In this document: positions 11,659-16,047 of the stretch, piece after piece
How positions within the stretch are numbered: the first letter of the stretch is position 1
Layout of the letters: each line of letters begins with the position of its first letter
Assembly (NCBI GenBank): GCA_023443725.1
Contig: JAEZTF010000007.1
Span: 103,846-167,845, forward strand
Reading direction: 5' to 3'
DNA from: Candidatus Parcubacteria bacterium
Lineage (GTDB): Bacteria > Patescibacteriota > Microgenomatia > UBA12405
Length of the DNA stretch: 64,000 nt
The notes under the pieces: generated by a model
Told to the model about the DNA's origin: nothing
Seen by the model: only the letters and a program-made list of their open reading frames with translations
The model's database searches: none
Position numbers and translations under genes: made by a program

Positions 11659-11838
11659 ATGTCTAAATCTAAAAAAACACCTCGAATTTTGTTGGCCTTA
11701 GTTTGTTCGGTTTGTGGTGCTCAAAACTACCTTACTGAAAAAAACAAAACCAATACCCCTGACAAACTTAAATTTGTCAAATATTGTAAATGGTGTAAAA
11801 AACGCACTGAACACAAAGAATCTGCTAAACTAAAGTAA
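11659..11838 (+). CDS. rpmG: 50S ribosomal protein L33
   Basis: MSKSKKTPRILLALVCSVCGAQNYLTEKNKTNTPDKLKFVKYCKWCKKRTEHKE fits the L33 Cys4 zinc-ribbon pattern. Not in the ORF track (shorter than 60 aa). Confidence 0.8.
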   Translation: MSKSKKTPRILLALVCSVCGAQNYLTEKNKTNTPDKLKFVKYCKWCKKRTEHKESAKLK

Positions 11839-11839
11839 T

Positions 11840-12001
11840 ATGACTGACACTAAAGTCAAAAAAACTGACGAAAAAATCGTTCCTGAAACTACGGTTCCTA
11901 AATTCAATAAACCAGATTTTCAAAATCTTGGTGCCAATAAATTTAGACCAGTATTTAAAGCCACCGGACGCTTTCAGAGTATCAATCGTTCTCGCCGATA
12001 A
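11840..12001 (+). CDS. hypothetical small protein (53 aa), directly after rpmG
   Basis: ATG overlaps the rpmG stop. Translation MTDTKVKKTDEKIVPETTVPKFNKPDFQNLGANKFRPVFKATGRFQSINRSRR. No match recognised. Confidence 0.3.
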   Translation: MTDTKVKKTDEKIVPETTVPKFNKPDFQNLGANKFRPVFKATGRFQSINRSRR

Positions 12002-12010
12002 ACTCTAATT

Positions 12011-12529
12011 TTATTGTTTTTCGTATTGTTGCAATTCGTTGTATTTATATTCCAATTTTATCCCTACTTTTTTAAACATCTCTTCTGATTCAGCCCCAGC
12101 ATGATATTTTCTCTCACAAACAACTCTTTTTATTCCACAATTAATTAAAAGCATGGCACAAGTCCTGCACGGGGTCATCCGACAATATACTGTTGCCCCA
12201 TCAATCGAAACCCCTAATTTAGCTGCCTGACAAATAGCATTCTGCTCTGCATGAACTGTTCGTACACAATGTTCGGAAATTGACCCATCTTCATTAATCA
12301 TTTTTTTATATTGATGACCAACCTCATCACAATGAGGCAAACCTTTTGGTGAACCAACATATCCAGTTACCAAAATTTGTTTATTCTTCACAATTACACA
12401 TCCACTTCTACCTCGATCACAAGTGGCACGTTTAGAAATTGCTTCCATTACTTCCATAAAATAATCATCCCAACTCGGTCTGACATATTTAGATACATTT
12501 ACTGAACTTTTTTTATCTGTTTTTTTCAT
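12011..12529 (-). CDS. dCMP deaminase (ComEB-type cytidine/deoxycytidylate deaminase)
   Basis: Zinc motifs VHAEQNAI and PCRTCAMLLINCGIKRV. Confidence 0.8.
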   Translation of the reverse strand: MKKTDKKSSVNVSKYVRPSWDDYFMEVMEAISKRATCDRGRSGCVIVKNKQILVTGYVGSPKGLPHCDEVGHQYKKMINEDGSISEHCVRTVHAEQNAICQAAKLGVSIDGATVYCRMTPCRTCAMLLINCGIKRVVCERKYHAGAESEEMFKKVGIKLEYKYNELQQYEKQ

Positions 12530-13089
12530 TATTTATGATCAATAATTTGTAATATTTTTTCAATTTTTTCATTTAATTCTTCCAATGATCCATTATTATC
12601 AATTACAAAATCAGCTCTTTTAATACATTCACTTAGATTTTGTTTATTTGGATCAATTGAAACCATTTCTCTTTGTTCATCAGCTAAAAACTTTTCAAAA
12701 CTAACATTATCCGTTGATGTACCTCGTGTAGAAATTCTCATATATCTTATTTTAGGATCAGCATCTACAGCTAACAAAGTAAAATTACCTTTTTTTCTTA
12801 ATGTTTCAATTTCTCCAATAGTTCTCAAACTCTCAATTACAGTATTGTCTTCAGAATTTAAAGCCCTATTAAATAATTCTTCTGCAATAAACCCAGGACC
12901 AAATTTTTCTCTTAAATCATTAGCAACATTCACCATACTATCACGATTGTTTTCTAATCCTCTTTTTTTTATTTCTTCAATCAAAAAATCCCTAGCCGAA
13001 AAATGTTTAAAATTTTTATTTTTAACTAGATATTCAACTACGGTACCTTTCCCTGCTCCTAATGTTCCTGTAATACCAATTATTATCAT
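12529..13089 (-). CDS. P-loop nucleoside-monophosphate kinase-like protein (adenylate/cytidylate/dNMP kinase or CoaE-like)
   Basis: N-terminal Walker A IIGITGTLGAGKGT. Exact family not resolved. Confidence 0.45.
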   Translation of the reverse strand: MIIIGITGTLGAGKGTVVEYLVKNKNFKHFSARDFLIEEIKKRGLENNRDSMVNVANDLREKFGPGFIAEELFNRALNSEDNTVIESLRTIGEIETLRKKGNFTLLAVDADPKIRYMRISTRGTSTDNVSFEKFLADEQREMVSIDPNKQNLSECIKRADFVIDNNGSLEELNEKIEKILQIIDHK

Positions 13090-13221
13090 TCTGGTATCAA
13101 TTTACCATCAATTTAGGCTCAAAACAATCTATCATTTTTAAAAAAAATATGCCCAATATAAAAGTTTTTTCAAACTCCCATATTGGGCACTCACCAAAAT
13201 CCCTACACTTTATAAATTTTC

Positions 13222-13404
13222 TTAGCTATTGGCTACAGCTTTTTCTTCAGCATTTTTCGAACGCTTTTTCAACTGACGCCGCAGATCATTTTCTCTTTCT
13301 GAAGGACTTCTCCTTCCTGAATTAGCTTGTAGCATGCGACCTCCACATTTACCACATACCGTCTGGCTGTTTTGGACTTTCCCACATTTACTACATCTTG
13401 GCAT
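13222..13404 (-). CDS. small zinc-ribbon protein (60 aa), GC-richer than surroundings
   Basis: MPRCSKCGKVQNSQTVCGKCGG has two CxxC pairs, with AAGGAG 7 nt upstream. The ORF-track start at 13422 is probably too early. Confidence 0.5.
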   Translation of the reverse strand: MPRCSKCGKVQNSQTVCGKCGGRMLQANSGRRSPSERENDLRRQLKKRSKNAEEKAVANS

Positions 13405-13562
13405 AAATAATCTCCTTTTCATTCAGTTGTTTTATTTTATCGGTAAAGTGCAAGGGATTTCTTAAAAAGAAAAGATACTTTCAAAAACTATATTTCAAAA
13501 GTAATAGTTCGTATTCTATACCATCTTGTGCAGGTTCGCCAGGAGTCGTCTCAATTTATTAT

Positions 13563-14174
13563 CTATTTTCTTCCTATATACGAAACAATACCGTAATATT
13601 TCAAAAATTCTTTAGTTCTATTACTATCCCAAAAATATAAGTCATGTGCCAAGATCGTTTCAAAACCATTAAACAAATTTTGAACCTGTACTAAAGATAA
13701 ATTGCTTCTAATTGTGTTTAAATAATCATCTGTAGGGAAATTACTTCTGTTTGCTGTAGGGTCTCTGTCTGACAACATTGAAACATATATTACTCCTCCC
13801 TTCTTTAACCCCTGTTTCATTTTTTCAACCGCCTTCTCTACACCAGCTTCGTCCAAGTGATGTAAAACCATTGAGCATAGAATCAAATCATATTCATCAC
13901 TCTTCATTTCAAAATCCAATATGTCTGAAACATGAAAATCACAATTAGGATATTCTCTTGATAATTCACTAATAGCATAACTAGAAATGTCTATTCCGCT
14001 GACTTCAAATCCACTATCAATTAATGTTTTTATATTTGGTCCTAAGCCAACACCTACATCAAGTGCTTTACCTTTATTAATAACATCCAAATACTTAAAT
14101 AGATCTAATACCTCTTTAGATTGATATTGTTTTTCTCTGTAATCACGATCATAAAAAGACTCTATTTTGTTCAT
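13563..14174 (-). CDS. class I SAM-dependent methyltransferase
   Basis: Motif I ALDVGVGLGPN and motif post-I ILCSMVLHHL. Bracketed by a tRNA-Trp 3'-end direct repeat. Confidence 0.75.
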   Translation of the reverse strand: MNKIESFYDRDYREKQYQSKEVLDLFKYLDVINKGKALDVGVGLGPNIKTLIDSGFEVSGIDISSYAISELSREYPNCDFHVSDILDFEMKSDEYDLILCSMVLHHLDEAGVEKAVEKMKQGLKKGGVIYVSMLSDRDPTANRSNFPTDDYLNTIRSNLSLVQVQNLFNGFETILAHDLYFWDSNRTKEFLKYYGIVSYIGRK

Positions 14175-14176
14175 TT

Positions 14177-14250
14177 TGGCAGGTCCGCCAGGAGTCGAAC
14201 CTGGAAAAGCAGTTTTGGAGACTGCTGTGATACCATTTCACCACAGACCT
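14177..14250 (-). tRNA. tRNA-Trp (anticodon CCA), CCA end encoded
   Basis: Reverse complement AGGTCTGTGGTGAAATGGTATCACAGCAGTCTCCAAAACTGCTTTTCCAGGTTCGACTCCTGGCGGACCTGCCA. Anticodon loop CTCCAAA, T-loop TTCGACT. Confidence 0.8.
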
Positions 14251-14281
14251 AAAGTAAAGGAATTTTACCCTAAAACTAAGT

Positions 14282-14914
14282 CTAATTCAAAGTTAAGATT
14301 TTTTTGATTCCTATTAAAATATCTTTTGGAGTTTCGGCAATGAAGTCAACTCCATTTCTTTCTAATCTTTCCTTTTCATGTAACCCCCACAAAACTCCAA
14401 TTGCTTTCATTTTTACTTCATGAGCTTCTTTCACATCTCCTACACTATCAGTTACCAATAAAGTTTCTTTTGGTTTAATTTTGAATTCTTCAAAAACCAT
14501 TTTAAACTTCTCCACTTTACTCGGATTAGTCTTTCTAGCCATAATTCTAGTAATATATTTATCTAAATTATGTTCTTTTAAATAAATTTCTATTGCTTCT
14601 TCATCAGCTGAAGACACAATTATTATTTTAAATTTCTGTTTTATTAATTCTTTGAATATATCTTCTATCCCTTCAATCGGAATCAATTTTGTTACTCTTT
14701 TTGAGTATTGTTCAAAATAATAAACTTCACTTCCATTACCTTCTTCCTCTCTCAATTTTTTACTATAAACATTTCCTTCTGCCCAATCCTGAATTTCTGA
14801 ATATTCAACATTACCAAAATATTCTTGGTTTATAGTTAAACCCATTTCCAGAGTATCAACAATAACTCCGTCAAAATCAAACATAACTATTTTATTTTTC
14901 TTCATAAAACTCAA
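14282..14914 (-). CDS. HAD-superfamily hydrolase (phosphatase)
   Basis: Motif I MFDFDGVIVDT, plus a downstream HAD motif (VTDSVGDV). Confidence 0.7.
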   Translation of the reverse strand: MSFMKKNKIVMFDFDGVIVDTLEMGLTINQEYFGNVEYSEIQDWAEGNVYSKKLREEEGNGSEVYYFEQYSKRVTKLIPIEGIEDIFKELIKQKFKIIIVSSADEEAIEIYLKEHNLDKYITRIMARKTNPSKVEKFKMVFEEFKIKPKETLLVTDSVGDVKEAHEVKMKAIGVLWGLHEKERLERNGVDFIAETPKDILIGIKKILTLN

Positions 14915-15965
14915 TTTTATTTAATAGTTTTTGAATTTTAATCTTATCAAAAAATTTATCCAAAAACATCTTTTCTAAAAATTTTCGTAAAATATCAATT
15001 CCAAATCCTAATATAAATATTATTATTGCCACTAACAATAAATAAAATCCAAAATAATTAAAATTAGCAAAATGTTTAATATTGAAAATTTGATACCACA
15101 AATAAGACCAAATAGGTCCATCATGAAATAAATATATTCCCAAAGTAGTTGAAGCCAATAAGTTTATTAATTTATTATTCTTTATCTCAAGGTTTTTAAA
15201 CAAGAAAAATAATGATATTGACCAAATCAACATCAAAAAAGAATTTGGTCTCCAAAAATAATTAGCACTAATTCCCGGTATTTTAAAAAATTCGATTATT
15301 AAAATAGGTAAAATGATTAACATTGTTGAAGCTAAAAATATTAATATTGAATTCTTTAATTTGTTAAAAAATTTCGGCAAAAACAGTCTTGTATAGGCTC
15401 CAAACAAAAACATCATTACTCCCCAGATAAATCGACTAAAAAACAAATAACTCTCAGTTTCGTTTGTTTTAAAACCCAATATTGTCGGCCAGAAAGACCA
15501 AATAAATGTCATTAAAAATAAAACCATCGACATTTGTTTCTTTGAAAGAGTTAATATCGTTTTTTTTAAAACTGGAGAGAATAAATAAATTAAAATATAA
15601 ACACTTAAAAACCAATAAGCCCCATTCAACACTGGTAAAAATGCTCTTGGTAACCACCAATCAATTCCAGAATTATTTCCAGTAACTTTCAACAAAAAAA
15701 CTCCAAATAATATATAAAAACTTGCTTCCAAGGAGACTTTAATTACTTTTATCCACTTAAAATTATTTTCTAAAAAGAAATATCCTGAAATTAAAATAAA
15801 ACAACTCACTCCTAATTCTCCTAACATGTCCAAAAAATCAACTAAAATTTTGTTAAAACTCAAAGTCGAATATCCCACTCCGCTATGCCAAACCGAATGG
15901 TACAGAATAATACACACTATACTTACAATTCTCAGCAATTCAAAATTAGATTTTCTAGAGTTCAT
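14892..15965 (-). CDS. acyltransferase-3 family membrane O-acyltransferase (OafA/WecH-like)
   Basis: Ten or more TM helices and an N-terminal FELLRIVSIVCIILYH acyltransferase-3 signature. The ORF-track start at 16016 runs into the tRNA-Ala gene, so the start was moved to Met at 15965. Confidence 0.65.
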   Translation of the reverse strand: MNSRKSNFELLRIVSIVCIILYHSVWHSGVGYSTLSFNKILVDFLDMLGELGVSCFILISGYFFLENNFKWIKVIKVSLEASFYILFGVFLLKVTGNNSGIDWWLPRAFLPVLNGAYWFLSVYILIYLFSPVLKKTILTLSKKQMSMVLFLMTFIWSFWPTILGFKTNETESYLFFSRFIWGVMMFLFGAYTRLFLPKFFNKLKNSILIFLASTMLIILPILIIEFFKIPGISANYFWRPNSFLMLIWSISLFFLFKNLEIKNNKLINLLASTTLGIYLFHDGPIWSYLWYQIFNIKHFANFNYFGFYLLLVAIIIFILGFGIDILRKFLEKMFLDKFFDKIKIQKLLNKIEFYEEK

Positions 15966-15974
15966 TTTTTTTAG

Positions 15975-16047
15975 TGGACCCAAGGGGACTCGAACCCCTG
16001 ACCTTCCCCATGCCATGGGGACGCGCTACCAACTACGCTATGGGCCC
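15975..16047 (-). tRNA. tRNA-Ala (anticodon GGC) with G3:U70
   Basis: Reverse complement GGGCCCATAGCGTAGTTGGTAGCGCGTCCCCATGGCATGGGGAAGGTCAGGGGTTCGAGTCCCCTTGGGTCCA. Anticodon loop ATGGCAT and a G3-U70 wobble in the acceptor stem. Confidence 0.8.

Follow-up and report, generated by a model that had tools for sequence, protein, structure and literature searches.

How did the 3' end of a tRNA gene come to be repeated, in the same orientation, on the far side of a single methyltransferase gene, and did that gene arrive by integration into the tRNA? The question is raised by a stretch of 64,000 nucleotides from Candidatus Parcubacteria bacterium (assembly GCA_023443725.1, contig JAEZTF010000007.1, positions 103,846 to 167,845), which is referred to here as the window and in which an open reading frame (ORF) for an S-adenosylmethionine (SAM)-dependent methyltransferase adjoins the gene for tRNA-Trp. 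The original prediction, which was made from the nucleotides alone, regarded the arrangement as an att-like scar. We propose that the methyltransferase gene and the few bases around it may constitute a non-autonomous, one-gene integrative cassette that was inserted site-specifically by a recombinase acting in trans and that is expressed from the tRNA promoter, a reading to which we assign a probability of roughly 0.55. The parts of the locus on which this proposal is built are the following.

14177–14250, minus strand: tRNA-Trp (anticodon CCA), intact, identified by ARAGORN and Rfam (RF00005, 62 bits).
14179–14197, minus strand: repeat copy 1, the attL-type core, tRNA positions 56–74, CGACTCCTGGCGGACCTGC, from the repeat search.
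13549–14178, minus strand: insert-specific DNA of 630 bp, consisting of CAAA, the methyltransferase ORF and ATAATAAATTGAGA, delimited by alignment and by BLAST breakpoints at 14172 and 13548.
13563–14174, minus strand: class I SAM-dependent methyltransferase of 203 aa with a predicted TehB-like fold, from Pfam, NCBIfam, a PDB sequence search, and AlphaFold2 (AF2) with Foldseek.
13530–13548, minus strand: repeat copy 2, the attR-type core, a displaced tRNA 3' end, CGACTCCTGGCGAACCTGC, with G68 replaced by A, from the repeat search.
13423–13529, minus strand: ancestral tRNA trailer and leader of the Zn-ribbon gene (ACAAGATGGTATAGAATACGAAC...), from comparison with empty-site strains.

The repeat of the tRNA-Trp 3' end, described in the original prediction as 17/18 identical and in the same orientation, is borne out. 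With up to 3 mismatches allowed, the 18-mer CAGGTCCGCCAGGAGTCG at 14180–14197 has a single other match in the window, at 13531–13548 on the same strand and with 1 mismatch, while none of 100 dinucleotide-preserving shuffles gave any match to it. The repeat search extended the identity by one base to 19 nt (13530–13548 versus 14179–14197, 18/19 identical, spacing 649), which on the tRNA strand reach from C56 of the T-loop to the base after the discriminator, CGACTCCTGGCGGACCTGC. The two copies bracket a single methyltransferase gene, as had been claimed, and the only other DNA between them is 4 nt on one side of the ORF and 14 nt on the other, which is all the non-coding DNA that the insert possesses. 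A generic motif, occurring at many unrelated places, is ruled out by the two matches in the window and by the finding that, among 74 tRNAs checked in 658 kb (the related loci and the window), a partial copy exists only for tRNA-Trp of the window; none was found in the window for its other six tRNAs. A functional RNA element at the displaced copy is likewise ruled out, as this segment folds no better than its shuffles (z = +0.48) and Rfam finds only the tRNA. The same structure is present in at least five contigs from five assemblies that were produced by three assembly pipelines and is therefore not an assembly artefact. The methyltransferase is carried by the samples behind ERZ27268862, ERZ27268864, ERZ28596294, ERZ28596802 and SRR13358430.

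Related loci were retrieved with the downstream kinase gene as an anchor, and further ones via the 90% cluster of the Zn-ribbon protein; where a source is named for homologs of the flanking kinase, it is Candidatus Shapirobacteria, a lineage of the candidate phyla radiation (CPR)/Patescibacteria. Upon alignment, three states are distinguished. In state 0 (L006, L007, L038 and L083–L085) tRNA-Trp is followed by a spacer of 50–85 nt and the kinase gene, in state 1 (L081, L082 and L089–L096) by the Zn-ribbon gene and the kinase gene, and in state 2, that of the window, by the methyltransferase gene, the partial tRNA copy, the Zn-ribbon gene and the kinase gene. L089–L095 are conspecific with the window, from which they diverge by 0.1–0.2% in the right flank (11700–13500) and by no more than 1% in the acyltransferase region, both as measured for L089–L091. 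Six contigs from six other samples (L089, L090, L091, L092, L094 and L095) span the junction, and 6/6 read ...CGACTCCTGGCGGACCTGCAC AAGATGGTATAGAATACGAAC...; in the window, the displaced copy is followed by exactly this sequence. The sole structural difference between the window and its empty-site conspecifics is a clean 649-bp insertion, i.e., the 630 bp of unique DNA plus one repeat copy, with its junctions at the repeat. The outgroups L096 (93–97% identical) and L081/L082 (87%) are also without the insertion and have the same arrangement, and because of this the 649-bp insertion is, by sequence comparison, a gain in the window's lineage. The check proposed with the original prediction, whether tRNA-Trp is directly followed by the Zn-ribbon gene in strains that lack the methyltransferase, thus has a positive outcome in L089–L092, L094, L095, L096 and L081/L082, and the methyltransferase gene, far from being syntenic across the lineage without a repeat, was found only in the window's strain group. 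No larger, intermediate allele was found in the approximately 25 related loci.

At the junctions, the comparison reaches the single base. The DNA at 13423–13529 differs from that directly after tRNA-Trp in the empty-site strains at one position, 13487. On the tRNA strand, the gene ends with ...TTCGACTCCTGGCGGACCTG-CCA, followed by AA and then by the ATG of the 203-aa ORF, the CCA end being DNA-encoded in the window strain; after the discriminator, the empty-site strains have CAC and the window has CCA. The displaced copy retains the ancestral trailer (CAC AAGATGG...), and the working tRNA bears the insert-derived CCA AA ATG. The cassette provides the trailer and the encoded CCA of the rebuilt tRNA, and the native 3' end has been pushed 649 bp downstream. 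Moreover, the discriminator is followed in the window by 9 nt (CCAAAATGA) that match in full the tRNA-Trp trailer of the relatives L083/L084 (CCTGCCAAAATGATAGG), an identity that fits the derivation of the cassette att site from another tRNA-Trp locus. The displaced copy carries an A where all functional tRNAs have G68. As the chance of a random substitution within the 19-nt copy is only 2–4% at a flank divergence of 0.1–0.2%, A68 probably came with the incoming DNA and is thus probably of donor origin. Given a donor-type A68, the crossover most likely fell within ACCTGC, the final six bases of this block (tRNA 69–74).

Taken together, these features have the geometry of a conservative, site-specific integration: the repeated block covers the tRNA from T-loop to 3' end, an intact tRNA has been rebuilt, its native end is displaced, the empty sites are exact and the polymorphism within the repeat is of the donor type. 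The segment from T-loop to 3' end is reportedly the usual identity block of the tyrosine integrases that target tRNA genes. The att-like insertion scar at tRNA-Trp that was originally predicted is hence supported, with uninterrupted sites in conspecifics and the junction at the repeat. In the mechanism that we propose, the cassette, made of the 630 bp of unique DNA and a 19-nt core that copies tRNA-Trp 56–74, would recombine conservatively with the chromosomal tRNA-Trp gene at its 3' end; GAGACGACTCCTGGCGAACCTGCCAAAATG would be the cassette sequence that recombines with this end, and the recombinase would come from a helper element or from the host instead of being encoded by the cassette. The excised cassette is predicted to have an attP junction of ...ATAATAAATTGAGACGACTCCTGGCG[A/G]ACCTGCCAAAATGAACAAA..., and the restored attB is predicted to be ...CGACTCCTGGCGGACCTGCACAAGATGG....

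Expression of the cassette gene would depend on two further predicted features.

14262–14290, minus strand: putative sigma-70-like promoter, TTGAAT-17-TAAAAT, from a consensus scan, conserved in aligned relatives.
13149–13190, minus strand: putative intrinsic terminator, a 19-bp stem followed by T8, from the consensus scan only.

The ATG of the methyltransferase gene lies 2 nt after the CCA of the tRNA, with neither a promoter nor a Shine-Dalgarno sequence between the tRNA and the ATG, and the only candidate promoter found upstream of the gene in the consensus scan is that just upstream of tRNA-Trp. The first terminator downstream of tRNA-Trp in the same scan follows the Zn-ribbon gene and would therefore close a putative transcription unit of tRNA-Trp, methyltransferase and Zn-ribbon genes. 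In the simplest model, transcription of the promoterless methyltransferase gene would begin at the tRNA-Trp promoter and give a tRNA-mRNA co-transcript, from which 3' processing of the tRNA would free the methyltransferase message as a nearly leaderless mRNA.

The window is one of several genomes in which this site is occupied. Judged from the related genomes, which hold other cargo, the 3' site of tRNA-Trp is a multi-allelic hotspot. The cargo of L037 (3892–4905) encodes a radical-SAM protein of 337 aa that matches prokaryotic viperins (PADLOC pVip, 1e-27); this insert lies immediately upstream of genes for a nucleotide kinase and a dCMP deaminase and has an exact duplication of 9 nt, AAAATGATA, on both sides, which is single-copy in L038. 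The cargo of L040 is a glycine-rich/fn3 protein of 1105 aa with an 84-aa ORF, that of L041 an uncharacterised protein of 277 aa, and that of L044 a cupin with two more genes. In several cases, as with the methyltransferase, the cargo ORF next to the tRNA shares its orientation and begins only a few nucleotides beyond it, the cupin ORF of L044 starting 4 nt after the tRNA and the viperin homolog of L037 10 nt after the insertion junction. In addition, a 33-nt filler (TTCGTTTTCAAACTTCGGCAAGGTAAACCTGCAC) bounded by the 8-nt sequence ACCTGCAC is found directly after tRNA-Trp in three genomes (L006:3143-3175, L038:1853-1885 and L037:3837-3869); it aligns at 21/32 positions with the 3' third of the tRNA and may be a decayed older scar of the att type. 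The conserved flanks of the hotspot, and the gene that separates the displaced copy from the kinase gene, are as follows.

13222–13422, minus strand: gene for a Zn-ribbon protein of 66 aa with its own ribosome-binding site, AAGGAG, from Pfam and comparison of relatives.
12529–13089, minus strand: nucleotide kinase of the AAA_17 type, the conserved right flank, from Pfam and used as the retrieval anchor.
14282–14914, minus strand: HAD hydrolase, the conserved left flank, from Pfam and strain comparison.

The Zn-ribbon gene is missing in the distant relatives L006, L038 and L083–L085, where tRNA-Trp directly precedes the kinase gene, and by this comparison the Zn-ribbon gene is an earlier allele state of the same hotspot.

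A recombinase was looked for in the window. Precomputed Pfam annotation was available for the called genes at approximately 7.5–64 kb of the window, and the remaining larger ORFs were scanned directly against Pfam. The annotated genes are housekeeping genes only, with no tyrosine or serine recombinase, transposase or phage gene detected by Pfam among them, although some genes of the window are without a Pfam match. The insert itself encodes no integrase, as its sole ORF is the methyltransferase gene, so the original statement to this effect holds for the insert and extends to the Pfam-annotated genes of the window. Viral contigs were scanned for the core and for the gene: an exact 20-mer gave 0 matches, no methyltransferase relatives were found, and two matches to a degenerate 18-mer, in GC-rich contigs with unrelated flanks and no tRNA, were rejected as chance rather than accepted as an attP-bearing phage or plasmid.

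Several of these observations weigh against a site-specific cassette. No recombinase was found among the Pfam-annotated genes of the window, and neither a circular nor an attP form of the cassette was found in the viral contigs. The neighbouring duplications at the hotspot differ in length and position, being 9 nt (AAAATGATA) in L037 and 8 nt (ACCTGCAC) in L006, L037 and L038, and variable duplications are not predicted by a single recombinase with one fixed core. The arm-type sites of lambda-like integrases could not be accommodated in 4 + 14 non-coding bases, so that the enzyme would have to be a simple one of the Cre/Xer-like kind. Finally, the use of the tRNA promoter is predicted from consensus scans only.

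The main rival, which we regard as serious even if unlikely, is that DNA of a relative was taken up by transformation and joined to the chromosome by short-homology or illegitimate recombination, with no dedicated recombinase. Two routes are conceivable: a circularised fragment could enter by a single crossover at the 19–27 nt of homology to the tRNA end, or one end could recombine homologously in the HAD/tRNA region and the other illegitimately. Naturally competent bacteria are known to undergo the latter process, termed homology-facilitated illegitimate recombination (PMC3240628). The lack of an integrase among the annotated genes of the window speaks for such a process, as do duplications of 8, 9 and 19 nt at differing positions within the same 40-nt zone. 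Furthermore, the similarity between the new and the old trailer continues beyond the 19 nt (C-AAAATG versus CACAAGATG), the BLAST segments overlapping by 27 nt, and the adjoining HAD gene is scrambled by recombination. This gene is 3–7% divergent among strains whose neighbouring DNA differs by no more than 1%, including strains without the methyltransferase, and from these comparisons it looks like a local hot region of recombination or diversification beside the insertion hotspot.

Against this route, the duplicated block is exactly the canonical att block from T-loop to 3' end. RecA-mediated exchange usually needs longer homology than 19 nt with a mismatch, and the repeat falls below this length. 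The HAD gene is equally divergent in strains without the methyltransferase, and the 186 nt immediately left of the insertion, which separate it from the HAD tract, are identical to those of L090/L091; the divergent HAD gene is thus unsupported as a recombination tract that imported the methyltransferase gene. Nor is there, in the databases searched, a donor lineage with a native tRNA-methyltransferase arrangement.

Somewhat less likely still is that the insert is a decayed remnant, in which a larger integrase-bearing element, such as a prophage, an integrative element or a tycheposon-like island, was deleted down to one gene while both att sites were kept, i.e., a classical cis-mobilizable element (CIME). 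CIMEs, which keep attL and attR after loss of the genes for integration and transfer and are mobilised by accretion with a related element, are documented (PMC5704250), as are the islands of Prochlorococcus, in which scattered partial tRNAs and degenerated elements occur (10.1101/2020.12.28.424599), and the 33-nt filler of L006, L037 and L038 may be just such an older, emptied scar. The insertion is, however, recent, given the 0.1–0.2% divergence of the right flank, yet no pseudogene debris is left; the endpoints of the deletion would have had to fall precisely on the attR core on one side and 14 nt past the stop codon on the other; and a larger intermediate allele is missing among the related loci. 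Since the insertion is recent and free of debris, a compact cassette is more likely than a decayed element, although the two are not fully separable.

A broader and speculative possibility, to which we give about as little weight as to the decayed remnant, is that the 3' ends of tRNA genes in the CPR serve as an integron-like platform for capture and expression, at which promoterless single-gene cassettes are exchanged between relatives without a cassette-borne recombinase; the 649-bp unit would then be the whole of the mobile entity and no remnant. Its cargo would comprise the methyltransferase, viperin-homolog and cupin genes and perhaps the Zn-ribbon module, at tRNA-Trp and perhaps at tRNA-Ala, and the cassettes would be expressed as tRNA-mRNA co-transcripts, with tRNA processing giving leaderless messages. 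Weakest is the notion that the methyltransferase gene is ancestral and was lost from the relatives by precise deletion between the repeats: although recombination of the 19-nt repeats would restore the exact empty site and the structure alone gives no direction, many independent losses would be needed instead of one gain (six conspecific contigs, L096, L081/L082 and the distant relatives are all without the gene), no relative of the methyltransferase exceeds 42% identity in 1.84 billion representatives, and the repeat would still require an earlier insertion event.

The methyltransferase ORF matches the generic Pfam/NCBIfam families Methyltransf_11/12/23/25/31 and TehB but does not reach the TehB equivalog cut-offs of NCBIfam (51.5 bits versus 303 and 45.3 versus 218). 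Its AF2 model (predicted local distance difference test, pLDDT, 88.6) finds its best Foldseek matches in TehB, in 2p8j and in uncharacterised small methyltransferases, with a template modelling (TM) score of approximately 0.75; that to TehB, at 19% identity and TM of about 0.75, indicates a similar fold and leaves orthology with the TehB tellurite-resistance enzyme unsupported. The enzyme is accordingly modelled as a putative TehB-like SAM methyltransferase of the small-molecule type. The original suggestion of an orphan DNA methyltransferase fails, and with it a role in restriction-modification: the ORF has generic domains only, neither a DNA-methyltransferase domain nor the catalytic motif, (D/N/S)PP(Y/F/W) or PCQ, was found in its sequence, and its best structural matches are TehB and uncharacterised small methyltransferases. 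A PADLOC match to mad2 covers the SAM-binding core only.

A word-based search of 5.8 billion proteins returned only the protein itself, and a HMMER scan of the 1.84 billion representatives returned one relative at 42% identity, P0122, as the closest; the next HMMER matches, at 34–39% identity, are C-terminal domains of radical-SAM fusion proteins of up to approximately 900 aa. The GC content of the gene, 0.31, is like that of the host. The P0122 gene follows a gene whose product has a UvrA-looking C-terminus (by eye) and has no tRNA nearby, so that the family is not generally tRNA-linked, and a general linkage was rejected on the basis of this context. Also rejected was the idea that the 5' end of the methyltransferase gene had been built from the ancestral spacer, as CCAAAATGA...TAGAG resembles AAAATGATAGA, since the N-terminus MNKI..FYD..Y is kept in the 42%-identical P0122. 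A 13-mer, ATAATAAATTGAG, located just 3' of the methyltransferase stop codon (13550–13562), also occurs 3' of the P0122 gene (L088:872-884) in an unrelated context; this 13-mer may accompany the gene family as a conserved downstream element, or may be a chance match in AT-rich DNA.

Other observations concern the surrounding genes. The Zn-ribbon module (13128–13527) consists of the gene and a strong terminator. A direct repeat around it (AAGATGGTATAGA at 13515–13527 and AAAATGATAGA at 13128–13138) is suggestive in position and was not significant upon shuffling (p = 0.26). In L081 and L082, which come from different samples, an identical segment begins at tRNA-Trp, takes in the Zn-ribbon gene and extends to the spacer that precedes the kinase gene (L081:1107-1614 and L082:167-674), and the DNA upstream of it is unrelated, with tRNA-Ala in one and two tRNA-Arg genes in the other. 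The 5' acceptor strand of their tRNA-Trp, AGGCTTG, forms a C4-A69 mismatch with the shared 3' strand. Either recombination with a breakpoint at the tRNA or a chimeric assembly could account for the shared segment.

The 3' flank of tRNA-Ala (window 15966–16047) is a second variable spot. An ORF of 136 aa, found in L006:873-1358 and L096:424-909 and absent in the window and L089, has its ATG 1 nt past the end of tRNA-Ala and changes how the acyltransferase gene begins; no repeat of tRNA-Ala was found at this spot. In the window, the acyltransferase ORF call (14892–16016) begins inside tRNA-Ala, its first ~17 codons overlapping the tRNA gene, and gene callers of public assemblies use this overlapping start. 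The real start is probably the ATG approximately 8 nt after tRNA-Ala (MNSRKSNFELL...).

Among known systems, the closest are the islands that target tRNA genes, such as P4-like prophages, pathogenicity islands and the tycheposons of Prochlorococcus, by which the partial tRNAs that litter the islands of this bacterium are explained (10.1101/2020.12.28.424599). As in these, a repeat of the tRNA 3' end flanks the insert and an intact tRNA stands at one end, the tRNA is regenerated by the element, the original end is displaced, sister strains have empty sites, and the same tRNA is a hotspot for differing cargo that includes a defence gene (the viperin homolog). Unlike them, the insert has no integrase, excisionase or replication gene, measures 0.65 kb instead of several to hundreds of kb, and is one promoterless ORF adjoining the tRNA, of which no circular form was observed here. 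The CIMEs derived from streptococcal integrative and conjugative or integrative mobilizable elements (ICE/IME) are alike in that attL/attR-type repeats are kept, genes for their own integration and transfer are absent and mobility needs a recombinase in trans. Those, however, are deletion derivatives of ICE or IME and usually have remnants, whereas the insert here has none, looks recent and holds a complete single ORF, and no related ICE or IME is known in the window's lineage.

Integron cassettes share with the insert a single promoterless ORF, minimal non-coding DNA, a defined site, an apparent resident promoter upstream and varied cargo. They differ in that no attC-type fold is present here (z = +0.48), IntI and attI were not found in the window, the site is the 3' end of a tRNA gene, and the window contains one cassette and the Zn-ribbon module rather than a long array. 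Elements that depend on Xer are represented by integrative mobile elements exploiting Xer (IMEX) such as CTX-phi and by the dif modules of Acinetobacter (PMC6449649 and PMC12907356). Such elements encode no recombinase and rely on a site-specific recombinase of the host, their site resembles the target and single-gene modules are possible; in contrast to a dif-like site of 28 bp with two binding arms and a 6-nt spacer, the repeat here is a tRNA end, and no dyad symmetry was seen by eye around the putative crossover ACCTGC. By analogy, the locus behaves as a tRNA-targeted genomic island and by definition resembles a CIME; it differs from both as a 0.65-kb promoterless ORF fused to a tRNA end with no trace of a parent element. 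No paper on tRNA-linked islands or integrases in CPR/Patescibacteria was found in the literature searched.

If the locus is only the scar of an ordinary integration followed by decay, it is a tidy example that holds no surprise. Little is understood of the exchange of accessory genes in CPR/Patescibacteria, whose genomes are tiny. In this respect, the locus is an unusually clean natural experiment: a single species is represented both with the 649-bp, one-gene insert and without it, the junction is known to the base pair, and the polymorphism in the repeat points to the crossover. In one sister genome, the site is occupied by an antiviral viperin homolog. Should the unit be mobile in its present form, it would be among the smallest tRNA-targeted mobile units known to us and would imply that genes are exchanged one by one at tRNA hotspots, either by a recombinase acting in trans or by a route driven by competence.

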